56,918 nucleotides of DNA from SAR324 cluster bacterium (GCA_016764995.1 JAESQU010000100.1:1-56918), one strand, 5' to 3'. Counted from the first letter of the stretch, positions 13,601-50,028 are shown. Numbers and translations are program-made. Notes: a model not told the origin generated them from the letters alone.

Positions 13601-14549
13601 GATCTTCTGTGGGTCGATTTTGTAAATGTAATTGAATCAATTTGTGCAGTTCCTTGCGGTAACTGCTGGCAAAGATGAACTCAATTACTCGCAGCTCTTC
13701 TTCGTTTAAGCCTTTACCGCATTTTTCTTTTAAAATCTCAATTGACGATTTTTTTATCGCTATTTGTTCTTTAGCATTCAGGGCATTACGGAAATAATTG
13801 TCATAAAAAGACTCCATCACATTTGCAATCAGTGCAACGAAGAAATCAGCGTCATTCCAACTGAAATTAAATTCCGGATTTGTGTTGATGATAACTTGCG
13901 CATCCATATCCGAATCAGGTTTGTGTCCGATTCCGCCCAAACTTCCAATGGTTGTGAGAGCCTTGATCATCTTTGCTGAGTCTTGTTTGAAATGACTCAC
14001 GAGGTCTGTTCCAGCAAATTCCTGCTCCAGATGAGCATCCATGCCCGCCTCACCCTTGATTGCGGCAGAAGACAAAAATCTTTCTATTCCTTCAATTCCA
14101 TGAATTGCTCCTTTTTGAAAAACATCAAAAGCAATACTGCGCATGACCGGCTTGCCAGCTTCATCAAACTTCCCTGTTTTTTCCTGTACTTCCAATACCG
14201 GCGAATCTTCCGGATTGATATCAAAAAGGAGCATACCTTCAAACATGGTTCGGTGCATTTCTTCATCACAAAGTTCCAGTAAACTTGCTAATCGTAAGCG
14301 GTTTATCCGGCCCATCTCATTAAATTCCCTTTGTGCGTACTCTTTCCATTTTTTCAAATGTTCTGTGTGGTAGGAGTCTCGCAGAGAATCACTGATTTTG
14401 GTGGAACTGAGGGATTGCAACAAAGTTTTAAATCCGCTTGCAGCAAAATCACCTTGAGGATTACATGGTATTTGAGCATTAAACGAACAGAGTAACTCAA
14501 GTTGTCTGTCGAGTTGGGAAAGTGTTTCGGTGCTCAAATCAGTATTCAT
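10695..14549 (-). CDS. Giant (~1285 aa) protein with a Pol-beta-type nucleotidyltransferase motif; class I adenylate-cyclase-like by local similarity
   Basis: IGSLGGIGHKPDSDMDAQVI (D-S-D-M-D at nt 13902-13916) resembles [20 protein letters not shown] of E. coli CyaA. It also resembles the GKLGGxELxxxSDxDL motif of the GlnE in this window. A later EIHFFTNIL...ALMLNDFLLNPAA segment resembles VSFFLID...LLLDEFYRTA. ATG at 14549 (MNTDLSTE) is preferred over the TTG at 14597. Confidence 0.8.
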   Translation of the reverse strand: MNTDLSTETLSQLDRQLELLCSFNAQIPCNPQGDFAASGFKTLLQSLSSTKISDSLRDSYHTEHLKKWKEYAQREFNEMGRINRLRLASLLELCDEEMHRTMFEGMLLFDINPEDSPVLEVQEKTGKFDEAGKPVMRSIAFDVFQKGAIHGIEGIERFLSSAAIKGEAGMDAHLEQEFAGTDLVSHFKQDSAKMIKALTTIGSLGGIGHKPDSDMDAQVIINTNPEFNFSWNDADFFVALIANVMESFYDNYFRNALNAKEQIAIKKSSIEILKEKCGKGLNEEELRVIEFIFASSYRKELHKLIQLHLQNRPTEDQNGLFLRAVITTLKKFPDCEDLLPPLNNFFSFIKKNRGDLHKMSFPYSLQQFNKGKVLNWLVQFYRNTFLDEAGARQVLWRFAVGNNLSPESMPDEKQDACFLNSLTNNSQLSLLLNEFFEHLSNQVAFISRANVSEAIKVLKQHFSTKNLILDDGLEKKIMSKLEIKYSSRMVMLIETFSDGQAKDLEAEIEYPLHLKIQQAEAYLTKKYPTTEIHFFTNILRKQRNGKHTPFLVSPEGSMAYALMLNDFLLNPAAMICGITPMPFDLPKNFKILSSIGVFPEADWTLKQNLVAEYEVKDITAQTKIEEGQLKQNVAEKAQILEEEKETFVLGKLPNWGEIIIPREMFLGHALPIFLRESEKISHRNLPKALLNCWWLEMIVCIDKEDDLPTSLTRLLWNPEGRNFVREQRKGPLIDAIIKMEEDYPTLQLDPWWLKFTEMLVRFESYEQEEEEPDFELNTLSETQKNIIFCFAQHMRISDVINFGDDGKAFWQDENATWRSRALVDFYNIFFSIPEDRRELIRFTEGRDDAGNKVEKILKKLFLESMTRVEKKLCKIGHTRALQQISNQLARLSEKGFEKETATEFLSPLLDVVNQRVSIEDRKVLVKLKRKIPLNKIEQMQAKIVYEELQKLKSVQGKIVDFFSQFGLKMEESWVRKTITNAKVKVAGDSLENVIFKFHFERNFERKPFQVPLPISKSLSIPRSRIKIEFLRKSAKWQFSSMLSHKEAGRASGAENVMPMFESNLVEGIARCTFSGYVGFGGKHLSTFEKPAAQIHSDIAMNPISGGALFTLATKIKTFFSPFAVSSRELMVNMHYIRDILMVCHVNKLDTLSLIVRDNLGEQFVINFNIHNIVIKKVPPKLRIGGDSALAEFFMRLNSQECRLLFLRNLSALKIPLRSSNLPHLQIWVNGANYNFPITPKFQQNYLNGIANTLWPHNSIGTREHLKPFPMSRTFDEIGKASMHG

Positions 14550-14888
14550 GCAATTGTTCAAAAATGATATTAGTAGAATTATAATGTTGCACAACATTTA
14601 TAGCAAATAAACGCGAAAAACGGAATGTAATATTAGTTGAAAAACACTACCTCAGATGTTCTTAACTTGTATAAAAAGACGAGGAGGGACTGACTTCGCT
14701 TAAAAAAAGAAGTTTGCCATTACTGTTAATGCCGGAGTCAATTGGAACTTACTTAGAAATATAACTTGATGCGAATGGTTGGGAAGACAGGAATGTTTTT
14801 GAATCTGTATGGAGCCGGTCAGCTACTGTAAAGCTAACCATGCTGAAGTTACTATGAGTAAGTAAATTTCAAAAAACGAGGTTCTGTT

Positions 14889-34131: not shown

Positions 34132-35565
34132 ATGCGAAAGATTTTGACAGTATTTTTGACAATTTGTTTTTTAACCGGATTCTCTTTTTCAGTATTGGGC
34201 GGCGGATTGGACAATACAGATCCTCGTTATCCGTTACGCGAGTACCGCCGCTTTATGCTGCCAAATCAAATGAAAGTAATGCTAATTTCAGATCCAACCC
34301 TGCAACGAGGTGCGGCTTCGCTAACGGTTGGTGTTGGTTCAATGAGTGATCCCGCAGAACGTTTTGGATTGGCGCATTTTCTGGAACACATGCTTTTTTT
34401 GGGAACCGAAAAATATCCGGATGAGGGCAGCTATCAGAAATTTGTTTCAACACATGATGGCTTCAGCAACGCCTATACTGCCGATGACCGCACCAACTAT
34501 CACTTTGAGGTTGATCCGGATTTTTTTGAAGAAGGTCTGGAGCGTTTCTCACAATTTTTTCTGACACCTTTGTTCAACCAGGAATTGGTGGAACGTGAAA
34601 TCAAAGCGGTGGATTCAGAGCACTCCAAAAATATTCCAAATGATTACCGCAGAATTTTTCAAGTCAAACGCAAAGCTTTTGAAAAAGGACATCCTGCCAG
34701 ACATTTTGCCACTGGAACAATGGAAACTCTGGAAGGAGTAAGCAGAGAAGAATTGTTGTCATTTTATAACAAGCATTATTCAAGTAATCAAATGATGCTG
34801 GCAGTTGCAGGACCTCAAAACTTGGACACTTTGCAGGCCTTGGTTGTTCCACGTTTTGTCGCAGTGAAAAATCGTAACCTGCTGGAAAAACGGGTTTCGC
34901 CAAAATTCATGAAACGTGATCCACGATTTCGTTTAATGCGTGTAAAAACTATTAAGGATTCTCGTTCATTGACCTTGATGTTTCCTTTGTCACGCACTCT
35001 TCATTATTACAAAAGTCAACCTTTGGGAATGCTGGGTTTCCTGCTCGGACATGAGGGCCAGGGCAGTTTGCTTTCGTTGCTGAAAAGTGCAAATCTGGCG
35101 ACTGGCTTATCTGCGGGAGGTGGTGCGTCAAACAAATCTTTTTCAAGTTTTGATGTAAAGATTCAGCTCACGCCAAAAGGTTTGCGGAATTACTCTAAAG
35201 TTATCCGGCATGTTTTTCAATATTTGCGTTTGCTGCGTAAAACAGGGTTGCCACGTTATGTTTTTGATGAAGTGAAACAAATGTCTGAAATTGACTACAG
35301 GTTTGCAGAAAAACCTGAAGGAACATCGCTGGTCAATGTTTTCTCTACGCTGCTGATGTACTACCCAATGCGTACCTTAGAAATCGATCCGTACATTATT
35401 ACTGAGTTCAAACCACGAATTTTTGACAGTCTGCTCTATAGTTTGATTCCGGAAAATATGTTGGCAATTTTGGCGGCGCGGGATGTCAAAACGACGGAAA
35501 AGGAAGAGTTTTATGGTGTTGAGTATTCGCTGACATACAGTCATCCGAAGTGGATAAATAAATAG
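34132..35565 (+). CDS. M16A (insulinase/pitrilysin-like) zinc peptidase, N-terminal half; ends at an in-frame TAG
   Basis: Signal peptide MRKILTVFLTICFLTGFSFSVLG. Inverted zinc motif HFLEHMLFLGT and the downstream glutamate region are present. Confidence 0.85.
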   Translation: MRKILTVFLTICFLTGFSFSVLGGGLDNTDPRYPLREYRRFMLPNQMKVMLISDPTLQRGAASLTVGVGSMSDPAERFGLAHFLEHMLFLGTEKYPDEGSYQKFVSTHDGFSNAYTADDRTNYHFEVDPDFFEEGLERFSQFFLTPLFNQELVEREIKAVDSEHSKNIPNDYRRIFQVKRKAFEKGHPARHFATGTMETLEGVSREELLSFYNKHYSSNQMMLAVAGPQNLDTLQALVVPRFVAVKNRNLLEKRVSPKFMKRDPRFRLMRVKTIKDSRSLTLMFPLSRTLHYYKSQPLGMLGFLLGHEGQGSLLSLLKSANLATGLSAGGGASNKSFSSFDVKIQLTPKGLRNYSKVIRHVFQYLRLLRKTGLPRYVFDEVKQMSEIDYRFAEKPEGTSLVNVFSTLLMYYPMRTLEIDPYIITEFKPRIFDSLLYSLIPENMLAILAARDVKTTEKEEFYGVEYSLTYSHPKWINK

Positions 35566-35571
35566 CGTAAC

Positions 35572-37167
35572 TTGAAAATTAATCCTGCCTTAAAACTTCC
35601 GGAAGCAAATCCGTTCCTGCCGGAAAGTTTGGAGGTCTTAGCTTTTCAAGGTGCAGTTCAGCTTACTCATCAATCGCTTGTGGGATTGAAAAATGAAGGG
35701 CTGAGTGCAGGAGTGCTAAAACGCCTGGAAAGCACTCAGGATAAATTATGGGAATCATGGGGCAAATTGCTAACGTCTTTAGAGATTTCGCCTCAGGCAG
35801 ACTCTTCGGAAAAATTGCGAGAACTCATACGAAAACACGCGTTAGGAAACCCGAAAATTTTGCAGGATGATGAATTTGCTAAAATCTGGTTTCAGCAGGA
35901 TTTCCGTTTTGAAACGCCAAAAGCACAGTTGATGTTCAGGATTCATTCTCCGGAAGTTTATTCCTCTCCGCGAAATGCAGTCCTGTCACAACTTTATACA
36001 GATGCCATCAGTGAAGGACTGAATGAATTTGGTTATCCCATCCGTCTGGCAGGTTTGGAATATGGAATCCATGTTGATAAAAAAGGTGTAAATCTGACTT
36101 TCAGCGGTTACTCCGACAGGATTCAGGAATTGGTAAAAACCGTTGCGGGCCGCTTGAAAAAAATCACAATTGATAATAAAACGTTCAACACACTCAAAGA
36201 AGTTCGTTTGCGGCGCTACCAAAATTTTCATTTTCGCCAGCCTTATCAGCAGGCATTTTATTTTCGTAGTTTGCTGCTCGAAGGACATAAATTTTCGATC
36301 ATGGATTATGAAAAAGAAATAAAAAAAATAAAACTGAAAGATTTGAAAAAATTTGCAAATAAACTATATGACAGACTTTATATTGAGGGACTTGCATATG
36401 GGAACCTCCGTGAAGAAACTGTTTTGGAAGCAGTTGGAGTACTTCAAGAAAAATTAGACGGAAAACCTTTAGCGGAAGCAAAACGGTTTGTGAATAGTGT
36501 GCGCCAGATTTCTGCAGGAGAATCACACACTTTCACTCGTATAATGCAGGTTGAAAATTCTGCGGTAGTGACTGACATTCAGGTTGGCCAGCGAAATCCA
36601 AAATTGCAAGCGGCACTGATGGTGGTCGACAGCCTGATGCAACCCCAGTTTTATAATGAATTACGTACCAGTCAACAGTTGGGCTACATTGTCAATTCGG
36701 GCATGACAGTCCTGGAAAAAACATTGGGACTGATTTTTATAATTCAGTCTGGTGAATATAATACTGAAATACTGGAGCAAAGGATGGATGCTTTCCTTGA
36801 AAAATTCTACTTGTCCTTAAAGGAACTGCCCGACTTGGAACTGAACAAAATAAAAAAATCGGTGCTTCACAGTAAATTGCAAAAGACGACTTCAGTTACG
36901 AGCGAAGCTGGCCGACTATTTGTGATTGCCTTTGAAAAAAATGCAGAATTTGATCAAAATAGTAAAGAAATAACAGCCGTGGAAGAACTCACAAAGAAGG
37001 ACATTCTGGCTGTTGTTAAGAGCTATTTACTACCGTCCAAACAACGTAAGTTGATTTTAAGAATGTCCGGAAAGAATCATGTAAAAGGAAAGTCCGCTGG
37101 TAAATTAATTACATCAATGGCAAATTTTAAAGCGCAATATGCCTGTCCGGAAAACTGCTTACCTTGA
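35572..37167 (+). CDS. M16A peptidase, C-terminal half (same frame as 34132-35565, separated by TAG-CGT-AAC)
   Basis: It begins with LKINPALKLPEANPFLPE, which continues the conserved insulinase segment (..W....L..KFKLPxxNxFIP). Only a TTG is available as a start and no ATG occurs for about 120 codons. Confidence 0.8.
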   Translation: MKINPALKLPEANPFLPESLEVLAFQGAVQLTHQSLVGLKNEGLSAGVLKRLESTQDKLWESWGKLLTSLEISPQADSSEKLRELIRKHALGNPKILQDDEFAKIWFQQDFRFETPKAQLMFRIHSPEVYSSPRNAVLSQLYTDAISEGLNEFGYPIRLAGLEYGIHVDKKGVNLTFSGYSDRIQELVKTVAGRLKKITIDNKTFNTLKEVRLRRYQNFHFRQPYQQAFYFRSLLLEGHKFSIMDYEKEIKKIKLKDLKKFANKLYDRLYIEGLAYGNLREETVLEAVGVLQEKLDGKPLAEAKRFVNSVRQISAGESHTFTRIMQVENSAVVTDIQVGQRNPKLQAALMVVDSLMQPQFYNELRTSQQLGYIVNSGMTVLEKTLGLIFIIQSGEYNTEILEQRMDAFLEKFYLSLKELPDLELNKIKKSVLHSKLQKTTSVTSEAGRLFVIAFEKNAEFDQNSKEITAVEELTKKDILAVVKSYLLPSKQRKLILRMSGKNHVKGKSAGKLITSMANFKAQYACPENCLP

Positions 37168-37265: not shown

Positions 37266-37670
37266 ATGAAGAGGAATTGTAAATTTGATTTTAAGTGTTG
37301 TGGTATGAACTTTGCGAGTGTTTTAGTACAGAGTATCTTCAGATCACCACAATTCAGAAACTTGGTAATGGTTACGGAAAACGGAGTTCGCCTTCAAGTA
37401 GATTCGCAAAGACGTATTGGCGTAGCTGACGTAATAAATATGCTGAAGGGATTACGCAGCGAAGCCGTGATCAAGGTCGTCAGGACTTCTGGCGAAAATG
37501 AGAATGAAGCAGCTAGTATAGAATCAAAGACTCAGACTATTAGCTCAGAATCATTTCAAAAATCTTCAGCTGTTATCGGCAATACAGATTTACCCCAAAT
37601 TCGTGAACTGAATGAAATTGCCGCCATCCTGAGGAGCATGGACACCCAACAGAACCATTTTAGCTTCTAA
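37266..37670 (+). CDS. Hypothetical protein (weakly supported ORF)
   Basis: 134-aa ORF whose 3' end overlaps a convergent gene by 4 nt. No motif found and the start is uncertain. Confidence 0.3.
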   Translation: MKRNCKFDFKCCGMNFASVLVQSIFRSPQFRNLVMVTENGVRLQVDSQRRIGVADVINMLKGLRSEAVIKVVRTSGENENEAASIESKTQTISSESFQKSSAVIGNTDLPQIRELNEIAAILRSMDTQQNHFSF

Positions 37671-38290
37671 ATAATTCCCAACAATTTAAGTCTCTTCCTG
37701 TAAGAATTTACCGCACTATCTGGAATATCGAGTCCGGCTTCTTTCGCAATTCCACATAAAATTTTGGAGGATGCGCGAGGTCTTTCACGTAGGAGTTCAA
37801 ACAAATAACTCAGAGTCTCAGCGTTGAGTTGTCTGTGCTCGGGTTCTTTGAGTTCTTCAATTACGTCGAGACTGATGTTGTAGGCAAAAGCAATCTCCCG
37901 CCAATCTTGTTCTTCCAGCAATTCTCTGATTTCCCGTTGTTCCGCGAGACTGATTTGTTCAATTCTTCGTGGTACAGTCACTTCCTGTTGTTTACACCAG
38001 CGTCGTAATGTACTTGCGGTTATACCTGCTTCCGCCGCAATATCTTCAAAGGCCTCTCCGTTTGCAATTCTTTCAACCAGAACTCCGCGCTCTGCTTGAG
38101 AGAATCGTCTATTTTTTGTTTTTGTTATTTTCTGTTCTGTGAAGCCTGTTTTTTTTGCGACAGCTTTTACGACTGCTAGTTTAACCGCAAATTTTTCAGC
38201 AATTTCAGGAATGCTTTTCCCGCGGTCCAATTCAATGGCAATTTCTATATTCAGCAGTTCTTCTTTAAATTTTTCAGAGGTGACGGACAT
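37667..38290 (-). CDS. Hypothetical DNA-binding protein built from about four helix-turn-helix-like repeats
   Basis: Repeated units: IPEIAEKFAVKLAVVKAV, FEDIAAEAGITASTLRRWCK, WREIAFAYNISLDVIEEL, ILCGIAKEAGLDIPDSAVNSYRKRL. Confidence 0.65.
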   Translation of the reverse strand: MSVTSEKFKEELLNIEIAIELDRGKSIPEIAEKFAVKLAVVKAVAKKTGFTEQKITKTKNRRFSQAERGVLVERIANGEAFEDIAAEAGITASTLRRWCKQQEVTVPRRIEQISLAEQREIRELLEEQDWREIAFAYNISLDVIEELKEPEHRQLNAETLSYLFELLRERPRASSKILCGIAKEAGLDIPDSAVNSYRKRLKLLGII

Positions 38291-38532
38291 TTATACCACA
38301 TTTTAATATTCGTGTGACACGGCAGATTATTCAAAATCACAAATTTAAAAGGCTCCTTTTTTTCAACATGGTCAAGACATTCTTGACAAGATGCTCTGCC
38401 TTTGCGATGCTGTGGGCTGATAAAGGAGGATAGTTTTCGGTCTTTTTTGGTTTTTATGTTGGAAAGAGTAACGGTTGTTTTAAGTTTATCATTTTTTACA
38501 GACCAATTTAATCTTTTTCAAGGAGTATTGTA

Positions 38533-39021
38533 GTGGAAGAAAGTATAAATTCAATCGCAGAATTTCGATTAATTCCGGAATATCTTGAAAAAATAAGTGA
38601 AGAAGGAAAAGTCTGGCTGGCCCGCGCAATTGTGAATATTTTGATCGCGGACAAGCATCTGGTTGCAGAGGAAAAAGGGTTTTTCAAAGACGCCATCATG
38701 ATGGTTGAGAATGATGAGATTCGGGGCGAACTGATTGAAGCAATTAAACAACACGAAAGTGTTGAATTGGGAGTATTAGACTGTGACCGGAAATATGCAG
38801 GCCATTTTTTCTTTTTACTCGGAATGGTCATTGCGTCTGATGGGAAGATAATGACTTCCGAAGTTAAAATGCTGTCATCAATCTGCGGCAAATTGGGGTT
38901 TCCTGAAGAAACCTCAAGGGAGGTGTTACATTGGGTGATAGAAATGATAAAACTCAACAATGACCGGAAGCAGATGACTGAACTACTGGGAGAAATAAAA
39001 CCGGTGTTTGTATTAAAATAA
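38533..39021 (+). CDS. TerB-like (tellurite-resistance/DjlA N-domain-like) protein
   Basis: Two repeats of the pattern hhxhhxADGxhxxxExxhh (ILIADKHLVAEEKGFF; VIASDGKIMTSEVKML). GTG start. Confidence 0.45.
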   Translation: MEESINSIAEFRLIPEYLEKISEEGKVWLARAIVNILIADKHLVAEEKGFFKDAIMMVENDEIRGELIEAIKQHESVELGVLDCDRKYAGHFFFLLGMVIASDGKIMTSEVKMLSSICGKLGFPEETSREVLHWVIEMIKLNNDRKQMTELLGEIKPVFVLK

Positions 39022-39071
39022 GTTTTTCTTCAAATATGTTGAATTGTAATTTTTAACAAAAAACTAGAATA

Positions 39072-40001
39072 ATGTCTTTGCTAATTTGTCTGCCTGATTC
39101 ATTTGAGCCTCGTATTTTGTGCTCCTCACTGCAATCACTTGATCCAGAGTTGAAAATTGAAATTGGTCCTGAAAATGTGCAAAATCCAGCTGAAGTGGAG
39201 TTTGCGGTTGTCTGGAATCATCCGCAGGGGCTTTTGCTGAAGTATCCAAATTTGCAAGCAATTTCATCTTACGGACATGGTGCGGACGGTTTGCTTGCGG
39301 ACAAGAAACTTCCGGAAGGTGTGCCGATCGTACGTTTGACAAATGAAACAATGGCAAATTGGATGAGTGAGTATTTGCTGGCCGTGGTACTTCTAAAGCG
39401 GCGTCAATTGCTTGAACATGCCTCAAACCCTGAATTTGTTGAATGGGGAACTGCCGCTCGCCATCCAGGAAATCAGCTCGGAATCCTCGGTTTGGGATAT
39501 TTGGGAAAGGCTGCCGCAAAAGTGTTTTTACAAATGGGATTTGATGTAGCCGGCTGGAGCCGTACCCTCAAACAGATTGAAGGAGTTAGCAGTTATTCTG
39601 GAAGAGATGGTTTGACTGAAATGCTAAATAAAACGGATTATCTCGTCAATATACTTCCGCTCACTGATGAAACTCTTAATTTGTTAAATACTGAAACGTT
39701 ATCTCAACTTAAACGCGGAGCTTACTATATCAATGTCGGACGTGGACAAACTCTTGTTGAGGAAGATCTGATTTCATTATTGGATGCGGGACAGTTATCC
39801 GGAGCATGTCTTGATGTTTTTCGGACAGAGCCTCTGGCAGAGGGACATCCTTTCCGGAAACATAAAAAAATTCTTATAACTCCTCACAATTCATGTTCCA
39901 CACCGCCAGAAGCTGTTGCTCCGCAAATATATGAAAATTACAAACGGGCTATTTCCGGACGTCAGCTTTTGAATTTGGTTGACTTAAAACATGGCTATTG
40001 A
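39072..40001 (+). CDS. ghrA: Glyoxylate/hydroxypyruvate reductase A-like 2-hydroxyacid dehydrogenase
   Basis: It aligns by eye with E. coli GhrA: FAVVWNHP, GILGLGYLGKAAA, VNILPLTDET, NVGRG..LVEEDL, GACLDVF..EPL, ITPHNS. Confidence 0.75.
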   Translation: MSLLICLPDSFEPRILCSSLQSLDPELKIEIGPENVQNPAEVEFAVVWNHPQGLLLKYPNLQAISSYGHGADGLLADKKLPEGVPIVRLTNETMANWMSEYLLAVVLLKRRQLLEHASNPEFVEWGTAARHPGNQLGILGLGYLGKAAAKVFLQMGFDVAGWSRTLKQIEGVSSYSGRDGLTEMLNKTDYLVNILPLTDETLNLLNTETLSQLKRGAYYINVGRGQTLVEEDLISLLDAGQLSGACLDVFRTEPLAEGHPFRKHKKILITPHNSCSTPPEAVAPQIYENYKRAISGRQLLNLVDLKHGY

Positions 40002-40004
40002 ACC

Positions 40005-41117
40005 ATGAATTTCCGCCTCTCCTTTCTTTTCCGGAAATTATTTTTCTTTTACTTAATGATTTTATGTGGATGGCTGGCCTCTTGCGGACTAAGGACTGCA
40101 CCCAGAAATCTTCCGGAAATAAAACAAAAATCAACGTTCAGTGATTTTAAAGTGCGGCAACGGGGTGAGCGAATTCGGTTATCCTGGAAAATCAATGAAG
40201 CCGCAAGGAAAAATGCCCTAAAGAATTTTGATGTAAATTCTGGATTGAAAGATTATTTTCTGATTCGGGAACATCAAATTCCACTTGATTGCATGGCTTG
40301 TGAAACGGTGCTAAGGGCGCCTTTGCGTGTATTATTTTCAAGTAGCGCAATTATTCGTGACGGCAATCATTTGTATTATTATTTAGAACTACCAGAGAGA
40401 GATTTAAAATTACGTGAATATGAGCTAAGTCATTTTGGCCCTGATGAAGAAATGTTGTCTCCGGCGAAAACTGTGAAGTTCGGACAAAGCAAGCTGTTTC
40501 CAAAAGTGCCGGCTCCAAGCATGAAAATAATCCAAATTGAGGATGAAAAACAAACTATCCGATTTTCTTTTGGGAAAGTTGTTTTGAAAAAAACAACTGT
40601 AAATGCAGATGAATCAGCAAAATTGCAGGCACAGAAAAATGCAGATGTTGATAATTCAAAGCTTAATTCGCAGGACAAAAAACAGGAAACAGAAGTTAGG
40701 ACGTTCATTTTAAGATTAACCTGGCCGCAACTTTATGAAAGAGGTTTAAAACGTCTGCAAGGAGAAGGAAATTATTTTGAAGAACAGGAGATTTTTCAGG
40801 TAAATCTTTACCGTGCTCGAAGTGTTGAAACGTGGCCGGAAACTCCAATCAATAGTAAATCCGGTTCAAATAACTACTACCTGGATTCACTAAAATTACA
40901 GATTCGCCGCGCCAATGACCGGCAATTGAATGATTCACTTGCGGAAAGCTCAACTCCGGAACTCCCGTTTTATGTTGATTTGCGAGGTCAAAATGGTGAT
41001 ACTTGGTTATATCACTTGCGGCTGGCAGATCGTTTCGGAAATGAAAGTGTCGCGTCTGAAACTGTCACTGTTCATTTGCCGAAAACTACAATTAACGGAC
41101 AAAGTATCAGTAAATAG
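40005..41117 (+). CDS. Hypothetical lipoprotein
   Basis: Lipobox WLASC after a hydrophobic leader. No other motif. It starts 3 nt after ghrA. Confidence 0.7.
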   Translation: MNFRLSFLFRKLFFFYLMILCGWLASCGLRTAPRNLPEIKQKSTFSDFKVRQRGERIRLSWKINEAARKNALKNFDVNSGLKDYFLIREHQIPLDCMACETVLRAPLRVLFSSSAIIRDGNHLYYYLELPERDLKLREYELSHFGPDEEMLSPAKTVKFGQSKLFPKVPAPSMKIIQIEDEKQTIRFSFGKVVLKKTTVNADESAKLQAQKNADVDNSKLNSQDKKQETEVRTFILRLTWPQLYERGLKRLQGEGNYFEEQEIFQVNLYRARSVETWPETPINSKSGSNNYYLDSLKLQIRRANDRQLNDSLAESSTPELPFYVDLRGQNGDTWLYHLRLADRFGNESVASETVTVHLPKTTINGQSISK

Positions 41118-41144
41118 ACCTTTGTCCCCCTTACTAATTAAGCT

Positions 41145-43043
41145 GTGCAATTCATTAACTCCTTCATTTTTGTAGCGTTAAGCTTACTTCTTTTTGCCGG
41201 ATGTACAGGAAACGGTGAAAACATTCAGCAATTGCTGCTAACAAAAGATAATGTAAACAGTTACATTGAGGAGCAAAAGGTTTTACTTGGCAGTGATGAG
41301 GAAAATGTTATCGCACATTACAATTTAGCCAGATCATATTATTATATAAAAAATTACGAATCAGCAGAACAGCATGCACGTCGTGCCACTCGATTTGATC
41401 CTTTTAATGCGAGTTATTATGAGTTGCTTGGCAGTATCGCTTTTGCGCTGGAACGCTATGGTGATGCCATTACAGAGTTGGCGATTGCAGTTAGAATATC
41501 TCCAGAACGTGTTTCAGCATATTTGAAATTAGCAGCAACGTATGAGAAGATTGATGATTATGGACGCGCGATTTCATCTTTGGAACAGGCGCTACAGGTT
41601 GATAGACTTTATGCTGAAGCGCTGTTCCAATTGTCCAGGATTTATTTGCGTCAACGTGAATTTGAGGGGTCGATACGTACTCTTGAAACTTTACTGAAAC
41701 TTGAGCCGCGGAATAAAGAAGCACTGCTCATAAGAGTTCAAACATATTCTCTTCAAGGCAGTTACTACTATGCTCAAACTCTTGCGGAAGAAATGTTAAA
41801 TCAGTTTCCGGATTATGCACCGATTCGGCGTGAGTTACTTCGGATTCAATTTGCACAGCAGCAATGGCCTGAAGCACAAGCATTGCTGATTCAACTCAGA
41901 TCTAAGAGTTCATTTTCTGTAGAAGACCAACTGATTGAAGCATATTTGCTTTTACATCAAGATCAGGAAAAAGAAGCCCGTCTGCGTTTTGAAACGATCC
42001 TTGAACAGCACCCCAAAAACGTGGATGCGATTATGGGATTAGCTGTACAATTGTTGCGCAAAGGGTTTTTAGATGATTCGCTTAGCTGGTTAACTCGGGG
42101 ACTGGAGATAAATCCACGACTTGCCAGAGCACATTATTTGCGATCCTCGATTTTGTTTCGGCAGGGTGATTATCTGCAGGGAGATTTGGCAATTGGTCGT
42201 GCCTTGGAATTGGACTCTGCAAATCCATCTTATCAGCTTCTTTTTTTACGAAGACAGCTGATGAAGGGCGAATTGTCTGTTGTTGACAAGCAATTAAAAA
42301 GGATTCAGGAAAAACATCCTTTGAATACTGAAGCCTTGCAGTTGCAGGCAGATTTATACAAAAGCCGCGGGAATTCAGTGGAAGCAGAAAAATTGTTGAG
42401 GCAAGCAATTTTGGTTCACGATTCGCCTTCAATTCATTTTTCTCTGGCGAGGGTACTTTATCAACAGAGCAAGTATCGCTCAGTTTTGGAAGTAACAACG
42501 CCACTTTTAGATGTTCTTTCAGGAAATTGGGAAGTTGTTTATTTACATGCTTTGACTCTAAGCCGTGTAGGAAAATATGAAGAAGCACTCGAAATGAGTC
42601 AGCCCTACCTTGAGCGAAAAGAAAGCCAGGGTTATGCGCATCGTCTGGTTGGAGATTTGTTGCGCTACAAAGGGAAAGAGCAGGAAGCACAAAAAATTCT
42701 ACGGAGTGGGTTGGTTCAGTTTCCGGGGCACCTCTTTTTGGTAGATGGTTTGAGTGCATCATTAGTTATGACTGAAGATTGGGAACAAGTCCAGGAGTTG
42801 CTGGAAACAACTTTGGAGCAAAGCCAGCGTCTTTCAGGTAATCCGCCAATGTTACTTTTGTTTCTGGATCGTTTGGCTGTGGCTCATCAGCGTTTAAAGA
42901 AAACAGAGAAGAAACTACAAATTTTACGTAAATTCCATCAGCAAAATGATCCACTTACCGCAGCACAATTGCACTCTTTAGAGGAGCAACTCTTGTTTCC
43001 AATTTCGTTGCCATCTTTGGACAAGGCATTGTCTCCGTTATAA
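41145..43043 (+). CDS. TPR-repeat lipoprotein
   Basis: Lipobox LLFAGC. There are many 34-aa A..Y..LG..Y...G.Y..A......AL..P-type repeats. GTG start. Confidence 0.8.
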   Translation: MQFINSFIFVALSLLLFAGCTGNGENIQQLLLTKDNVNSYIEEQKVLLGSDEENVIAHYNLARSYYYIKNYESAEQHARRATRFDPFNASYYELLGSIAFALERYGDAITELAIAVRISPERVSAYLKLAATYEKIDDYGRAISSLEQALQVDRLYAEALFQLSRIYLRQREFEGSIRTLETLLKLEPRNKEALLIRVQTYSLQGSYYYAQTLAEEMLNQFPDYAPIRRELLRIQFAQQQWPEAQALLIQLRSKSSFSVEDQLIEAYLLLHQDQEKEARLRFETILEQHPKNVDAIMGLAVQLLRKGFLDDSLSWLTRGLEINPRLARAHYLRSSILFRQGDYLQGDLAIGRALELDSANPSYQLLFLRRQLMKGELSVVDKQLKRIQEKHPLNTEALQLQADLYKSRGNSVEAEKLLRQAILVHDSPSIHFSLARVLYQQSKYRSVLEVTTPLLDVLSGNWEVVYLHALTLSRVGKYEEALEMSQPYLERKESQGYAHRLVGDLLRYKGKEQEAQKILRSGLVQFPGHLFLVDGLSASLVMTEDWEQVQELLETTLEQSQRLSGNPPMLLLFLDRLAVAHQRLKKTEKKLQILRKFHQQNDPLTAAQLHSLEEQLLFPISLPSLDKALSPL

Positions 43044-43088
43044 AATCTTTGAAGGCTCAACAATTTAGGTACAAAACATTATAAAAAT

Positions 43089-46000
43089 ATGGGCTCAAAC
43101 AAGAAACAAACAAGCAAGTACAAATCAGCGTTTCATGCCGCTGAAGTGATGTCACACGATCTTTCCTTACTGCGTGGTAAGAAACTCCCAACTTTTTTTG
43201 ATGATTCAGCAATTCTGGGGTTACTGTCTGCTGAAGAGATTGATGAAGAAGTTCAGAAATTGAAGAAAATTGACGTTGACTCCTATATTCAACGTGTGGT
43301 GAATCCTTCTGAATCCAAAAAACGTCCGAGTGCGTCGGAAGTAATTCAGCAATTAGGTGGAAAAATGATTGCTGAAGAAACAGAAGGTCCGCTCTATACT
43401 GCGGAAATTGAATTTTTAATTTCAGGACAAACACGGAGACTGGGATTTATTGCCCAAAATCACAAAATACAAAATGGTGTCTGGTCTCCAACTCACCATC
43501 GGAAAGCCTCAGAAAAGGTGCGCTTCTTTGCTTCGCACAGTATTCCTCTAGTAACGTTTATTGATACGCCAGGTGCGGCCGCAGACGCAGAAGCAAATTT
43601 GGACAACCAATCGCATAGCATTTCATTTTTAATCAGTGAGATGGCTAATTTGCAATTGCCTGTTGTCGGAATTGTTTTTGGAAGTGGTTACAGCGGCGGC
43701 GCGATTCCCTTGGCAACTGCCAATATTCTGCTTTCCGTTCGAGAAGGTGTTTTCAATACTATTCATCCAAAAGGCTTAAGCAACATTGCCCGGAAATATA
43801 ATCTGTCATGGCAGGAGTCGGCAAAACACATTGGTGTTTCAGCATATGAATTAAAGGCTCAGGGGTATTTTGACGGTATCATCGATTATGCTTATGACAG
43901 CCCACATAAGACAAAAAATATCAAGGACGCGATCATCAGCGCGGTAGAAGCAACAGAGAAAAATTCCTGCAAATTTTTAATTGAAAATGATTTTTTCTTC
44001 GACCATTATCGTGACAGTATCTATCATTATCTCCATCCTTCAAAGCTCTTAATAGAAAGCAACAGAGTCACAGATCGATCACCAACAGGCACACTGAACA
44101 TTTTTGGCGATGTTTATCGTTTTATGCGTTACCTCAGATTACGCCAGCGAATTGTCAGTCGCTCAATAGACAGTTATGCGCGGCTCAGTTCACGCCAAAC
44201 TCCTGTTGGGAAATTGCAGGAACGTTTAAAAAACGAACGTCAAGTAAAACTGCAGCAGTGGTACAAAACGTCACTGGAAGTTCGATTTCATGAAAAACTG
44301 AATAAAAGTTTTGAACAGTTTGTCAGTGCCAGGGAAGATCGTGAAAAAGAACGAGGTCGTTTGGTTGCCTTTTTCATCGGCGATCCTCGAGAAAATTATA
44401 AAAAAGCCGTTGATGATCTTACTCTGGAAATCCTGCTTTATCTTTATAATTATTGGAAGGACAGTACTTCAGAAAACATGATAGAACTCTACGAAGAACT
44501 AGGTGAAGTCACTCTTAATGACCGTACACCCAGCAATCCAAATTTATTGGATTTATTAAAAACGACAGTAATTAATCAGAGTTTTAAGGAAAATTTTCAG
44601 AACATACTTCTTTTTGACTTGCTCTACAATCAAGTCATAGAAGCACTACCGACAATTGCAGATGAGTTGAAAGGGACAAATCAAATTTCCCAAAAGTCGG
44701 TAGAACAATTGTTCGAGAAAACCGTTGAAGGAGCAATGAAGGAATTCGAGAAAAATTCTTTGCGACTTGATAGCGATTCTATACGGACAAAATTTTTCAA
44801 GTGGCTGGCAAATTTCATTGACCACAAAGATTGTGATGATGTTTTGGGAACCATCAGTGATTGGAAACGAGTTGTCTTCCCCCGTATGAGTCCTCCGCTG
44901 TTTGGACTTGTGCGCTACTATTTTTCCGGACTGCTGCCTTCACTTTACGAAGCTCAGCAGAAAAAAGGAAAATTTCAAGGAAAAATCACTCCACGTAATA
45001 TCGGCATTAAAGATTTTTGGAATCGTCTGGATCAATCCTACAAGGATTTGCTGATCCAAAATTTGCTACGTGAATACAAAAGCTCTGTCATTACTCCCAC
45101 TAAAGTCATTAACCATTATTTCAAAGACTTTAAGGAATTGTATGCGGATAGAATTACTTCAAATCCGGTTAAATTTCCAGGATTCAGGGAGGCAATTGAA
45201 CAGGCATTGGATAGTGGTGTTACTCCATGTGGTGTGGTGACAGGACTTGGAACATTTGTCCATGAAGAAAATGTAGAAAATGCCACTGACAAAAAAATCA
45301 AAACTAAAAAACAAAAATCATCATATCGTGTCGGTTTGGTTGTTAGTAATGTAGAGTTTCAGGCCGGTGCTTTTGATATGGCAAGTTGTGAAAAAGTTTG
45401 CCGTTTGCTTGATGACTGCGCACGTTTGAAATTACCGGTTATCTTTTTCATCTCTTCTGCGGGAATGCAAACCAAAGAAGGCGGCGGATCTTTATTCTCG
45501 ATGGCAATCATAAATGAACGCATTACTCGATTTGTGAAAGATTTGGACCTTCCGGTTTTATGTTTCGGTTTTCGTGACTGCACCGGAGGTGCGCAAGCAA
45601 GTTTTGTGACGCATTTGCTTGTTCGTACATATTATTTTTCTGGATCACAAATTCCCTTTGCGGGACAGTTGGTTGTGGAAAGTCACTTGCCTGCCCATTC
45701 TACTTTATCGAATTACCTCTCTACAAATCCAGGTACAATGGATGGTCTGGTAAAAAATCCTTTTGACAAAAAAATTGATGAAAAGCTACAGGAAATTGAC
45801 CCACAAATTCCGATTGCGAAATTTTCCGTAGAGGAAATTATTTCACGTATCTTGTCAGGCGAATATCAGTTGTCAGAAGAAGACGAAGTTCAGACATATT
45901 CTACACAGGAAAATTTGCATGCCAATGAGATCAAGCGAGTCCTGATTCACGCGCGTGGATGCACGGCTGCCCGTCTTATACGTGGTACCCAAGATGCGGG

Positions 46001-47672
46001 AATGGAAGTGGTTCTAGTGGCCTCAGATCCGGATATGGAAAGTTATCCAGCAACAATGTTACGGGCGAAAGATCGTCTGGTTTGCATTGGAGGAAATACA
46101 CCTCAGGATAGTTATTTAAACGGAATGAGCGTGATCCGGATTGCTGAACAGGAGGAAGTTGACGCAATTCATCCCGGCATAGGATTTTTATCAGAATCAC
46201 CGCATTATGCCAGGATTTGCCGCGAACACGGTTTCAACTTTGTTGGGCCACGTGTCGCGAATATGGATAGAATGGGCAACAAATCAAATGCAATTGCGAC
46301 TGCACGAAATTTAAATATACCTGTAGTTCCAGGCAGTGAGGGTGCCTTAATGGATCCTGTTCATGCCATGGGTGTTGCCGCAGAAATTGGATTCCCTGTA
46401 CTGATTAAAGCGGCACATGGCGGTGGTGGAAAAGGGATTGAAGTGGTCAAAGAAGCAGGGCGCTTCAAATCAATTTTTTCACGTATGTTTCAAGAAGCCT
46501 TAAGCGCATTTGGTAATGGAGATTTGTATTTGGAAAAATTCGTCGGCTCGATGCGTCACCTTGAAGTACAAATAATCCGGGACATGCATGGTAATTCAAA
46601 ATTATTGGGTATTCGTGATTGCTCAGTTCAACGAAATTACCAAAAACTGATTGAGGAAACTGCTTCCGGAATTCCGAAAAATATTAAGGAACAGGTTTTT
46701 GATTATGCAGGCAAATTGATTGACGAGATTGATTACATTGGCGCGGGAACAGTCGAATTTATTTATGATCTTGATCAAAAATGTGTGTATTTTATGGAAA
46801 TGAATACTCGGCTGCAAGTTGAACATCCTGTATCAGAAATGGTTTCCGGAACCGATTTGGTAAGCCTCCAGTTTGAAGTAACACAAGGTCACAACATTGG
46901 AGAACTGGATTTTAAACTCAATGGTCATGCCATAGAATTACGTGTGATTGCGGAAAAAATCGAAATGGACGATGACGGTGAATTGCGATTTATTCCTGAT
47001 CCGGGTCATTTAACAGAAGTGTTTTTTCCGGAAAAAGCAAATGTGCGGGTTATACAATCCGTGACATCAGGTTCCATTGTTTCACCTTTCTACGATAGTC
47101 TTATCGCACAAATCATTTGCTGGGGAAAATCACGCAGGGAAGCAATTAGCAGTTTGCTCGAATTTTTAAAAGGAGTTAGAATTCATGGTGTTTCCACCAA
47201 CTTGGCATTGAATCGGGTAATTTTACAGGATCCTGCCTTTAAAAAAGGACGTTTCAGTACTAAGTATCTTGTAGAGTTATTTGAAAGAATTGATGGAAAA
47301 AAACTATTAAGAGAGGCACAAAAAGATGCGGGAACAGCAAAAAGTGCAGTGGACCAGAAGGCAATTATGCTGGAAGGTTCAAATGAGTTGAAAGTGCTTT
47401 CACCACAGATGGGCGGTTTTTATCGTGCAGCGTCCAGAGAGGATGAGCCATTTATCAGTGAAGGTCAAATCATTGACGTCAATCATATTCTGTGTCTGCT
47501 GGAATCAATGAAAGTTTTCACAGAATTATCTTTGGCAGACTACAAAAGTCCTGATGGCGAAGCATTATATCCGGATAATGTAAAATACAAAGTTTCTCGA
47601 GTTATTGCTGAAGACCAAAGCACTGTCAACCAGGGTGATTTGCTGTTTGTGATGCAGCCTGTGGATGCTTGA
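43089..47672 (+). CDS. Single-chain biotin-dependent carboxylase: AccA-like CT-alpha + ~450-aa linker + AccD-like CT-beta + biotin carboxylase + BCCP
   Basis: PLVTFIDTPGAAAD and GSGYSGGAIPLA (AccA-like). VEFQAGAFDMAS..FISSAGMQTKEGGGSLFSM..CTGGAQASF (AccD-like). GGGGKG, RDCSVQR and EMNTRLQVEHPVSE (AccC-like). LLESMKVF biotinyl-Lys motif (AAA at 47511-47513). Confidence 0.9.
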   Translation: MGSNKKQTSKYKSAFHAAEVMSHDLSLLRGKKLPTFFDDSAILGLLSAEEIDEEVQKLKKIDVDSYIQRVVNPSESKKRPSASEVIQQLGGKMIAEETEGPLYTAEIEFLISGQTRRLGFIAQNHKIQNGVWSPTHHRKASEKVRFFASHSIPLVTFIDTPGAAADAEANLDNQSHSISFLISEMANLQLPVVGIVFGSGYSGGAIPLATANILLSVREGVFNTIHPKGLSNIARKYNLSWQESAKHIGVSAYELKAQGYFDGIIDYAYDSPHKTKNIKDAIISAVEATEKNSCKFLIENDFFFDHYRDSIYHYLHPSKLLIESNRVTDRSPTGTLNIFGDVYRFMRYLRLRQRIVSRSIDSYARLSSRQTPVGKLQERLKNERQVKLQQWYKTSLEVRFHEKLNKSFEQFVSAREDREKERGRLVAFFIGDPRENYKKAVDDLTLEILLYLYNYWKDSTSENMIELYEELGEVTLNDRTPSNPNLLDLLKTTVINQSFKENFQNILLFDLLYNQVIEALPTIADELKGTNQISQKSVEQLFEKTVEGAMKEFEKNSLRLDSDSIRTKFFKWLANFIDHKDCDDVLGTISDWKRVVFPRMSPPLFGLVRYYFSGLLPSLYEAQQKKGKFQGKITPRNIGIKDFWNRLDQSYKDLLIQNLLREYKSSVITPTKVINHYFKDFKELYADRITSNPVKFPGFREAIEQALDSGVTPCGVVTGLGTFVHEENVENATDKKIKTKKQKSSYRVGLVVSNVEFQAGAFDMASCEKVCRLLDDCARLKLPVIFFISSAGMQTKEGGGSLFSMAIINERITRFVKDLDLPVLCFGFRDCTGGAQASFVTHLLVRTYYFSGSQIPFAGQLVVESHLPAHSTLSNYLSTNPGTMDGLVKNPFDKKIDEKLQEIDPQIPIAKFSVEEIISRILSGEYQLSEEDEVQTYSTQENLHANEIKRVLIHARGCTAARLIRGTQDAGMEVVLVASDPDMESYPATMLRAKDRLVCIGGNTPQDSYLNGMSVIRIAEQEEVDAIHPGIGFLSESPHYARICREHGFNFVGPRVANMDRMGNKSNAIATARNLNIPVVPGSEGALMDPVHAMGVAAEIGFPVLIKAAHGGGGKGIEVVKEAGRFKSIFSRMFQEALSAFGNGDLYLEKFVGSMRHLEVQIIRDMHGNSKLLGIRDCSVQRNYQKLIEETASGIPKNIKEQVFDYAGKLIDEIDYIGAGTVEFIYDLDQKCVYFMEMNTRLQVEHPVSEMVSGTDLVSLQFEVTQGHNIGELDFKLNGHAIELRVIAEKIEMDDDGELRFIPDPGHLTEVFFPEKANVRVIQSVTSGSIVSPFYDSLIAQIICWGKSRREAISSLLEFLKGVRIHGVSTNLALNRVILQDPAFKKGRFSTKYLVELFERIDGKKLLREAQKDAGTAKSAVDQKAIMLEGSNELKVLSPQMGGFYRAASREDEPFISEGQIIDVNHILCLLESMKVFTELSLADYKSPDGEALYPDNVKYKVSRVIAEDQSTVNQGDLLFVMQPVDA

Positions 47673-48705
47673 TCATGTATCTACTGTTATGAACCACCCA
47701 ATAAAAAAAACTGTTCCACCGACAACAACTCCTCCAGTCAGTCTTGAACAAATTCTAAAAGTAGTTTCAGCTGATATCGAATTACTCGAGTCACAAATTT
47801 TACGTGATGTAAAGACCGATATCCCCTTGCTCAACAATGTGGCGGAACATATTCTTAGTTCCGGAGGAAAAAGATTACGTCCGGCACTGGTACTTTTAGG
47901 TGCTGAAATGTTTGGAGGTGTTGATGAAAGAGTTATGCAGGCGGCGCAGGTCATTGAGTATTTGCACACTGCAACGCTCTTGCACGACGATGTAGTTGAC
48001 GGTGCGGAAACACGCAGAGCCAAGCAAGCTGTTTGCAGGGTTTGGGGAAATGAAGCGAGTGTTCTTTCCGGGGACTATTTGTTAGCCATGGCCTTTCACC
48101 GTCTCACTAAATTACGTCATCTGGAAGTTTTGGAATTGATGTCAGAAACAACGACAAAAATGGCGCGAGGTGAATTGTTGCAACTGACGCGTTCATTTGA
48201 GACAGCAAACGAAGAGGAATATCTTGAAATAATCATCAACAAAACGGCGTGTCTTTTTGCTACAGCAATCAAAACAGGAGCTTTGCTGGCCGGTGCATCG
48301 GGTGAATCTGCGAATCAGTTGTATGATTACGGAATGGCATTAGGGATTTCTTTTCAGATTGTGGATGATGCGCTTGATTATGCTGATGAGAATAAAACCG
48401 GAAAGCCGGTGGGAGGAGATTTACAAGAACGTAAAATCACTCTTCCTTTGAGTCATTTGCTTGGAAAAGCAAATGCCACGGACAGGAAGCGTTTGGATTC
48501 GATTCTGTCTATGGAGGAAATTGAAAAGCCGCAAATTGATGAGGTAATCAATTTGATGCGGAATTACGGATCCATCAATTACACTTTAGAATTTTCTAGG
48601 AAGTATGCTTCAGAAGCAAAACGGAGTATAGAAAATTTTCCTGCCACTAACCTCACACAATCACTTGCAGATATTACGGATTTTGTTGTTTCTCGTCAGC
48701 TTTGA
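47665..48705 (+). CDS. ispB: Long-chain (hepta/octaprenyl-type) polyprenyl diphosphate synthase
   Basis: First and second Asp-rich motifs LLHDDVVD and QIVDDALD. Its ATG overlaps the stop of the carboxylase gene (ATGCTTGA). Confidence 0.88.
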   Translation: MLDHVSTVMNHPIKKTVPPTTTPPVSLEQILKVVSADIELLESQILRDVKTDIPLLNNVAEHILSSGGKRLRPALVLLGAEMFGGVDERVMQAAQVIEYLHTATLLHDDVVDGAETRRAKQAVCRVWGNEASVLSGDYLLAMAFHRLTKLRHLEVLELMSETTTKMARGELLQLTRSFETANEEEYLEIIINKTACLFATAIKTGALLAGASGESANQLYDYGMALGISFQIVDDALDYADENKTGKPVGGDLQERKITLPLSHLLGKANATDRKRLDSILSMEEIEKPQIDEVINLMRNYGSINYTLEFSRKYASEAKRSIENFPATNLTQSLADITDFVVSRQL

Positions 48706-48725
48706 ATTAGTAGTTTTGAGTATTG

Positions 48726-49160
48726 CTATTTTTTTTGTGGAGACAATGAATGGCGGTTATAAAGTGAGCTCCAACGATTTGCACGCCGCGCGGCTTCACC
48801 AAATGAAATTAAAATATCTTCAATTATCAGCGGCTTTTCAAAAAAATCATAAGCTCCACCCTGCATGCATTGAATGACATTCGGTAAAGTGCCGTGTGAT
48901 GTCATGACAAAAATCTGCATCAAGGAATTCATTTCCTTTATTTCCTGCAATAATTCCACACCACTCATTTCAGCCATCATAATATCCGTTATCACAACGT
49001 GAAAGAAACTGCGCTGCAAAGTGGTCAGTGCTTCCTCTGCGCTTTTGGCTGTACTGACGTGATAGCCTTCTTTTCCCAAAACTTGCTGGAGAACCATACG
49101 TATATTTTCGTCATCATCGACCACCAAAATACTTAGTTCAAAGTTAGTTGTTTTTTTCAT
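48726..49160 (-). CDS. Single-domain response regulator (CheY-like receiver)
   Basis: ILVVDDDENIR, the phospho-acceptor context VVITDIMMAEMSG, and a conserved T/K region. Confidence 0.85.
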   Translation of the reverse strand: MKKTTNFELSILVVDDDENIRMVLQQVLGKEGYHVSTAKSAEEALTTLQRSFFHVVITDIMMAEMSGVELLQEIKEMNSLMQIFVMTSHGTLPNVIQCMQGGAYDFFEKPLIIEDILISFGEAARRANRWSSLYNRHSLSPQKK

Positions 49161-49185
49161 AGCCTTGTCTTTATGAACTTAAATA

Positions 49186-50028
49186 TCAATTTGCTGTTTT
49201 ACTGAGGGAGCGTAAAAATTTGACACGATCCGGAGCTACCATGGCCGCATTACCGATAAGTGCAGCGTCGCACGGGATTTTCAAAAGACTTTTTACATCT
49301 TCCGGCGAATTGACGCAGCTGGCACTGATCAATAATTTCCCTTCCTGTTTCTTCCATGATCTCAAATCCGGATAACGTTCCCACCAAGATGAAATAACAT
49401 CCACACTACCCAAGTCATATGTCGCCGTCGGTTCTTCCGGAATTGCTGCAATCGCTCTGTTATTGATCATCAAAATATCCGGATTAACCGCAAGTACCCT
49501 CGGTAATTCATTCTCAAGAGAACATTCTACAACCGCCTCTACTCCAATCATTTTGGCTTCAGCAATTATTTCACGTAATTTTGTTTCCTGAAAATAATAT
49601 GCCAGTATTAAGGCTGCGCTTGCACCTCGTACACGTCCTTCCAGTAGTTGGTATGGAGTTATAATGAACTCTTTATGCAACAAAGGCAAAGTAGTTGCCG
49701 CATGCACTTTTTCAAGAGTTTCAAGAGAGCCTCCAAACCAATTTTCATCTGTGAGTACAGAAATTGCTTTTGCGCCTCCTGCCTCATAATCGCACACAAC
49801 TGCTTCCGGATCAAGACGCTCAACATTATTACGTCCCGGAGCTTTCGATTTCACTTCCGTAATCAAAGAGATTGGCGCATCCGGTTCCCTCATCAAATTA
49901 GTGCGAAAATCCGGAGCAACTCCAAGCGTTTCCGCTTGTTCACTTAAGCTCTTTTCAGAAACTTTTATTTGACGCTGCGCAACTTCTTTTACTTTAAGAT
50001 CGTGTAATCGGTCTAAAAATGTTCTCAT
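49186..50028 (-). CDS. trpC: Indole-3-glycerol-phosphate synthase (orphan, somewhat divergent)
   Basis: ITEVKSKAPG, AISVLTDENWFGGS, LLHKEFIITPYQ, VVECS, INNR. ATG 50028 (MRTFLDRL) is preferred over the TTG at 50046. Confidence 0.75.
   Translation of the reverse strand: MRTFLDRLHDLKVKEVAQRQIKVSEKSLSEQAETLGVAPDFRTNLMREPDAPISLITEVKSKAPGRNNVERLDPEAVVCDYEAGGAKAISVLTDENWFGGSLETLEKVHAATTLPLLHKEFIITPYQLLEGRVRGASAALILAYYFQETKLREIIAEAKMIGVEAVVECSLENELPRVLAVNPDILMINNRAIAAIPEEPTATYDLGSVDVISSWWERYPDLRSWKKQEGKLLISASCVNSPEDVKSLLKIPCDAALIGNAAMVAPDRVKFLRSLSKTAN

Follow-up and report, generated by a model that had tools for sequence, protein, structure and literature searches.

Domain architecture of a single-chain carboxylase gene

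A stretch of DNA of 56,918 nucleotides from a SAR324 cluster bacterium (GCA_016764995.1 JAESQU010000100.1:1-56918; the whole of it is referred to here as the window) carries at 43089..47672 (+) a gene in which the modules of acetyl-CoA carboxylase (ACC) are joined in one polypeptide, and which is very probably the SAR324-lineage ortholog of AccS ("AccADCB"), a single-chain bacterial ACC. The gene is a single open reading frame (ORF) of 1527 codons plus a terminal stop, with zero internal stops. An in-frame stop lies upstream at 43050-43052, 12 codons before the start, so the start is not much further 5', and the N-terminus (MGSNKK...) agrees with that of the closest homologs. Mapping with Pfam and NCBIfam gives a continuous chain in the order carboxyltransferase (CT) alpha, linker, CT-beta, biotin carboxylase (BC), and biotin carboxyl carrier protein (BCCP), as proposed in a first-pass annotation made from the sequence alone; the approximate nucleotide ranges given there for the modules are correct, and all nine motifs quoted in it are located where it had put them. 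The assignment as an accS-type gene rests on the uninterrupted ORF together with a full-length match to a solved protein chain, 9kkm_A.

The chain opens with a conserved lead-in (residues 1-121) particular to the AccS family, followed by the AccA-like CT-alpha core (residues 122-294; 43452..43970, +). The N-terminal AccA-like assignment, for which a Pfam mapping had been proposed as a check, is supported by ACCA (7.8e-29) and by NCBIfam AccA_sub (3.7e-32). This module contains IPLVTFIDTPGAAAD (residues 152-166) and GSGYSGGA (residues 198-205), the latter including the oxyanion-type motif GYSGGA (residues 200-205), of which G200 to A205 show no variation among 14 and among 46 aligned homologs. 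Outside the AccS family, the best match of CT-alpha is AccA from Staphylococcus aureus (2f9i_A, 4.8e-18), and the module aligns with the C-terminal half (residues 315-414) of the beta subunit of propionyl-CoA carboxylase (PCC-beta).

The two CT halves are joined by an all-helical, family-specific linker of ~440 residues (residues 295-735; 43971..45293, +), defined by the helices of an AlphaFold2 (AF2) model and by matches confined to the family. Zero Pfam or NCBIfam matches were obtained for residues 295-735. With the linker alone as query, 106 of 1.84 billion representative proteins were matched at E<=0.001, 67 of them at E<=1e-10; those listed are either proteins of ~1400-1640 residues, with the match at the equivalent place in their interior, or shorter sequences that seem to be partial.

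The AccD-like CT-beta core (residues 733-891; 45285..45761, +) is recognized by the NCBIfam accD model TIGR00515 (3.2e-8) and carries VEFQAGAFDMAS (residues 755-766), FISSAGMQTKEGGGSLFSM (residues 787-805), and CTGGAQASF (residues 831-839). No CxxC pair is present anywhere in the 1527-residue protein and the Cys4 zinc ribbon of AccD is therefore absent, which bears out the earlier view of a CT-beta module lacking it. The best match outside the AccS family is S. aureus AccD (2f9i_B, 1.2e-9), and the part of PCC-beta with which the module aligns is the N-terminal half (residues 78-192). The best PDB matches of each half thus uphold the placing of alpha before beta, a permuted order with respect to eukaryotic ACC and to the CTs of PCC-beta type. 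For both halves, AccA and AccD are nearer than the PCC-beta-type CTs.

The ATP-grasp BC (residues 948-1394; 45930..47270, +) is matched by the NCBIfam accC model (7.5e-131) and by three Pfam domains, namely Biotin_carb_N (residues 948-1059), CPSase_L_D2 (residues 1065-1271), and Biotin_carb_C (residues 1283-1394). It carries GGGGKG (residues 1111-1116), RDCSVQRNYQK (with RDCSVQR at residues 1176-1182), and EMNTRLQVEHP, a region quoted in the first reading as EMNTRLQVEHPVSE (residues 1237-1250), and the motif residues are invariant across homologs. The C-terminal BCCP domain (residues 1410-1527; 47316..47669, +) is matched by the NCBIfam BCCP model TIGR00531 (4.4e-11, residues 1410-1481). In its ESMKV motif (residues 1472-1476), Lys1475 is the predicted biotinyl lysine; its codon, placed at 47511..47513 (+) from the outset, is AAA. 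The alignment shows no variation at E1472, M1474, or K1475, and the pattern E[SA]MK[VLMI] is found in 114 of 116 homologs.

Such conservation bears on the idea of a catalytically dead or regulatory paralog, which would have retained the fold and lost carboxylase activity. It could be invoked from the Pfam Biotin_lipoyl match (residues 1436-1481), which at 20.2 bits falls slightly under the 22.1-bit cut-off, and from an Ala in place of a Gly in a CT-beta motif. Against this, the catalytic motifs of BC, the two glycine motifs of CT (the second Gly of the altered one being invariant), and the E-x-M-K signature are all kept, conservation is strong over the full length of the protein (mean column identity 54-59%), and a second copy was not found in the window, nor was a separate acc gene. 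Loss of activity is accordingly considered very improbable, and an active carboxylase is the preferred reading.

Relationship to the Shewanella enzyme AccS

Among all PDB sequences, the protein is matched from end to end by 9kkm_A/9w4a, a chain of 1517 residues entitled "Acetyl-CoA carboxylase multifunctional enzyme AccADCB" (1450 bits), with residues 15-1526 of the query aligned to residues 20-1516 of 9kkm_A. The identity to AccS from Shewanella abyssi is 46% over 1538 aligned columns. Foldseek describes 9KKM as a cryo-EM structure of the Shewanella oneidensis holoenzyme in dimeric form, carrying the mutation E1238A and released on 2025-11-19; the comparison with 9KKM and 9W4A made here covers the entry title, the chains, and the portions of sequence present in the alignments. 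The first 306 aligned residues of 9kkm_A are 97% identical to those of a metagenome-assembled genome (MAG) of Shewanella sp. and 90-91% identical to the loci of S. abyssi and Shewanella algicola. The mutated position, Glu1238 in S. abyssi numbering, is the Glu of QVEHP, equivalent to Glu1245 of the window protein and invariant in the AccS family. We take this residue to correspond to the catalytic Glu296 of Escherichia coli BC. The map of 9KKM/9W4A also serves as a benchmark in one cryo-EM methods preprint.

Structural comparisons were made with predicted single-chain models of the two halves of the protein. The AF2 model of residues 1-945, built from an alignment of 46 sequences, has a mean predicted local distance difference test score (pLDDT) of 84.9 and a predicted template modelling score of 0.83, and shows two alpha/beta CT lobes flanking helices that are predicted at high confidence from residue ~272 to 677. 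In a Foldseek search of the PDB, the top match of this model is 9kkm_A (E 1.6e-73, template modelling (TM) score 0.78 over 922 columns, 44% identity); the linker region superposes on its equivalent in 9kkm_A, and the remaining matches, to AccA, AccD, PCC-beta, and 12S transcarboxylase, span one CT lobe only. The model of residues 933-1527 (pLDDT 87.3) matches the BC region of 9kkm_A with a root-mean-square deviation of 1.9 A over 455 columns, E. coli BC with a target-normalised TM score of 0.94, and the BC-BCCP chain of the LCC (long-chain acyl-CoA carboxylase) of Mycobacterium smegmatis over 636 columns (TM score 0.77). Both models point to the same chain fold and arrangement as in the solved AccS holoenzyme.

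The Shewanella enzyme is documented in two studies. The 1517-residue product of SO_0840 is named AccS by Luo et al. (2016; PMC4793157), who cite the genome paper of 2002 for the single-gene enzyme; S. oneidensis lacks homologs of E. coli AccABCD and has AccS in their place, together with one extra AccB homolog. AccS was detected on a streptavidin blot as a biotinylated protein of ~170 kDa in S. oneidensis (Xu et al., 2024; PMC11602165). In the same work, a mutant of accR, which under-expresses accS, shows a growth defect that either accS or the E. coli set accA+accD+accBC corrects; AccS was thereby shown genetically to be the ACC of S. oneidensis, and its domain order was stated to differ from that of eukaryotic ACC (PMC11602165). 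In the literature, only an operon-style usage of the name "AccADCB" was found. Because AccS has already been named, genetically validated, and structurally solved, the suggestion of the first-pass annotation that the arrangement could not be assigned to a described architecture falls: it is the same as that of AccS/AccADCB from S. oneidensis.

Several points call for caution in equating the SAR324 gene with a housekeeping ACC of this type. No more than ~46% of aligned positions are identical to those of the characterised enzyme of Shewanella. Separate accA, accB, accC, or accD genes, or any other acc-like segment, were absent from the 57-kb window, the sole region searched. A gene for a LysR regulator of AccR type does not adjoin accS, unlike the situation in Shewanella. 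Lastly, Ala replaces the first Gly of the SGG motif of CT-beta in this protein and in most of its closest relatives, and two further CT positions (His125 versus Arg, and Glu864 versus Pro) are fixed differently in the closest-relative group. Given the end-to-end match and the conserved catalytic motifs, orthology with AccS is nonetheless held to be very probable.

A catalytic cycle can be proposed by analogy with AccS of Shewanella and with what is generally known of biotin carboxylases; the putative substrate, the predicted biotinylation, the probable oligomeric state, and the presumed housekeeping role have the same basis. The C-terminal BCCP would bear biotin on Lys1475, and the adjacent ATP-grasp BC (residues 948-1394) would carboxylate this biotin with bicarbonate and MgATP. 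The flexible BCCP might then swing carboxybiotin over to a CT site that would be built from the AccA-like (residues ~122-294) and AccD-like (residues ~733-891) halves, held by the ~440-residue helical scaffold, where the carboxyl group would be moved onto acetyl-CoA, giving malonyl-CoA for type II fatty-acid synthesis. The enzyme is most likely a homodimer, as in the Shewanella holoenzyme, on the evidence of the title of 9KKM and of the two chains in each entry.

Distribution of the family and the variant CT-beta motif

At least 577 homologs were found at E<=1e-50. Nearly all of the best 120 of these are ~1500-1665 residues long and have the same Pfam domain set, and they come from many independent assemblies. 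Marine metagenome proteins, several of which are labelled SAR324, make up the closest homologs listed (84-92% identity), and full-length members farther off bear the labels Candidatus Lambdaproteobacteria, Lentisphaerae, Verrucomicrobia, Desulfuromonadales, or Pseudomonadales/Oceanospirillaceae; a partial match only was found on an Acidobacteria MAG contig. In a scan of a genome collection with the generic BC pattern YFMEMNT, the 80 loci listed are mostly ordinary accC, and ~8 have AccS-type genes. [quoted passage not shown] Judged by the labels on matching sequences, the family reaches well past the gammaproteobacteria and is wider than this published range. With orthologs in several lineages, the architecture can therefore be seen as a recurrent bacterial solution rather than an oddity of Shewanella. 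A circular permutation invented in this SAR324 genome was also considered and is ruled out, the domain order being common to the whole family.

Variation in length is seen within the family. AccS of Oceanospirillales type (Thalassolituus, Bermanella, and Bacterioplanes; P0088, P0112, and further members of 1620-1665 residues) has an insertion of ~110-120 residues within the helical linker, at alignment columns ~509-629, i.e., between residues ~473 and 474 of the window protein. The insertion creates a second length class, with 28 of the best 120 homologs at 1600-1665 residues. In a Desulfuromonadales MAG (CAMYNR010000072.1 5830-10414), the AccS homolog is found as two ORFs (792 and 732 residues) in different frames, with the break inside CT-beta; this split is most likely a frameshift error of the MAG and not a natural one.

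The same distribution bears on the reading of the gene as an assembly or annotation artefact, in which neighbouring acc genes would have been fused by a lost stop or a frameshift. Nothing specific speaks for such a fusion; a parallel can be drawn with a probable single-base defect elsewhere in the window, where a TAG interrupts the frame of an M16 peptidase gene. However, the collinear protein of ~1500-1665 residues recurs in the at least 577 homologs, from independent assemblies as well as cultured Shewanella genomes, and the Shewanella protein was purified and its structure determined as that of a single chain. The linker is moreover conserved and folds at high confidence, and the ORF is without internal stops. 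An artefact is already effectively refuted and its probability is put close to nil.

Proteins of AccS type carry public labels such as "ATP-grasp domain-containing protein," "carbamoyl-phosphate synthase large subunit," and "acetyl/propionyl-CoA carboxylase alpha subunit." With genes mislabelled in this way, metabolic reconstructions of SAR324 could wrongly score ACC as missing or partial. For enzymology, the present gene brings little that is new, since a permuted single-chain ACC has already been annotated, named, validated, and solved in Shewanella; the added value lies in the broader taxonomic spread and in this caution regarding mis-annotation.

The sequence of the altered CT-beta motif raises the question of the substrate. 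The window protein has SSAGMQTKEG (residues 789-798) where 9KKM has SSGG, and SAGMQTKE had first been taken as a sign that the acyl-CoA used may not be acetyl-CoA. This argument is weak, as MQTKEG is family-wide and SGGMQTKEG is the form found in the Shewanella chain of 9KKM. In a motif census of 116 near-full-length homologs, SSGGMQTKEG is found in 82, SSAGMQTKEG in 19, all among the closest relatives of the window protein, and SSSGMQTKEG in four. Given that MQTKEG is common to the family, it is just the Gly-to-Ala change at position 791 that sets the closest relatives apart in this motif. When these relatives, taken as the homologs with ~63% identity or more, are compared with the rest of the family, 15 of the 1527 positions are fixed differently, three of which are in the CT modules (H125, A791, and E864).

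It can be hypothesized from these differences that the AccS architecture is combined here with an altered or broadened substrate range, e.g., propionyl-CoA or both acetyl- and propionyl-CoA, in the service of anaplerosis or dark carbon fixation and not as a housekeeping ACC. The substitutions fixed in the closest relatives would fit such a change, namely H125 in place of an otherwise 100%-conserved Arg, A791 versus Gly, and E864 versus Pro, and so would the JGI label "acetyl/propionyl-CoA carboxylase" on some members, although this label is a generic one. The fixed differences amount, however, to 15 in 1527 positions, with three in the CT modules, and a close SAR324 relative (P0008, 84% identity) retains the Gly pair. 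Oxyanion holes use backbone amides, and a change from Gly to Ala is plausibly tolerated. Furthermore, both CT halves are far more similar to AccA and AccD than to CTs of PCC type, and E. coli ACC can stand in for the characterised member AccS (PMC11602165). A shift in substrate is thus regarded as unlikely, and the narrower proposal that R125H, G791A, and P864E in AccS of SAR324 type could change or broaden acyl-CoA specificity, e.g., toward propionyl-CoA, is given a slender chance; acetyl-CoA remains the preferred substrate assignment. Were the proposal true, a single-chain carboxylase would be tied, beyond fatty-acid synthesis, to the anaplerotic or dark fixation of CO2 in a lineage that is abundant in the deep ocean.

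Genomic context and comparison with known carboxylases

In SAR324 MAG contigs, e.g., from GCA_014382365.1, the gene order is the same on both sides of accS. The order is that of genes for a helix-turn-helix (HTH) protein, a 2-hydroxyacid dehydrogenase, a protein of unknown function, a tetratricopeptide repeat (TPR) protein, accS, a polyprenyl synthetase, a response regulator, IGPS, and PNP_UDP_1. An exact match to the protein was not present in the assembly collection, but this shared order and the SAR324-labelled homologs at 84-92% identity point to a SAR324-type bacterium as the source of the window. The polyprenyl synthetase gene (47665-48705, +) is on the same strand as accS; with the mechanical start of its ORF, there is an overlap of 8 nt with the accS stop, and the start that fits the 338-residue SAR324 ortholog is an ATG at 47689, 16 nt past this stop. 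Both genes may be co-transcribed. A sigma-70-like site matching at 10 of 12 positions lies at 43018-43046, immediately upstream of accS, but is not claimed as a promoter: the scan is at chance level, the counts of promoters and terminators over 38200-49300 being equal to the shuffled expectation. Scans of the window for tRNAs and with Rfam gave no matches.

Other genes of the window deserve brief mention. Between the 2-hydroxyacid dehydrogenase and TPR genes, a 370-residue ORF without a Pfam match (40005-41117, +) has a counterpart of 378 residues at the equivalent position in SAR324 contigs (L081-L083). The HTH/transposase-like ORF (37667-38290, -; 207 residues, HTH_28 and HTH_Tnp_1) is found at the equivalent place in three SAR324 contigs, and is hence a fixed resident gene rather than a recent insertion. 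An M16 (insulinase/PqqF-like) peptidase gene (34132-37167, +) is present as two ORFs in the same frame (34132..35565 and 35572..37167), split by one in-frame TAG at 35563-35565, where the syntenic SAR324 contig L082, with a 1011-residue product, has TGG (Trp); the TAG is a G-to-A nonsense change, reflecting either a pseudogene or a sequencing error. Farther away, a 1300-residue ORF (10695-14597, -) has no significant Pfam domain, its weak match to Adenyl_cycl_N (2.5e-4) scoring 21.5 bits against a 27-bit cut-off.

Among known systems, eukaryotic ACC and the bacterial multidomain ACC/LCC, such as that of Saccharopolyspora erythraea (PMC6491548) and the "single-chain bacterial carboxylase" of which the CT domain is PDB 5fif, likewise have BC, BCCP, and a two-lobed CT on one polypeptide. 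The folds of BC and CT are homologous in these BC-first carboxylases and in the window protein. In the former, BC is N-terminal and the CT halves run beta-like then alpha-like, whereas in the latter CT comes first and runs alpha-like then beta-like. The scaffold of the window protein differs as well, being a family-specific helical domain. We presume, from general knowledge and from the absence of such a Foldseek match, that it is unlike the BT and central domains of the eukaryotic enzymes.

The heteromeric AccA/B/C/D enzymes of E. coli and S. aureus have the same four modules, with recognizable homology of each module to the corresponding subunit, and the two-step chemistry is presumably common to both. 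Unlike the heteromeric enzymes, with their separate subunits and the zinc ribbon of AccD, the window protein is one chain with no ribbon and with an added helical linker of ~440 residues to which nothing in them corresponds.

The closest known system is AccS of S. oneidensis (SO_0840; PDB 9KKM and 9W4A). The host is gammaproteobacterial there and SAR324-like here, the lengths are 1517 and 1527 residues, and the CT-beta motif is SSGG there and SSAG here, along with the few substitutions fixed in the closest relatives. In Shewanella, a divergent LysR-type accR gene adjoins accS, as seen in S. abyssi, whereas the window has the TPR protein gene upstream and the polyprenyl synthetase gene downstream; adjacency to accR is a trait of Shewanella and some gammaproteobacteria and not of the protein family. 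What both proteins share is the domain order, collinearity over the full length (46-47% identity), and the catalytic and biotinylation motifs.

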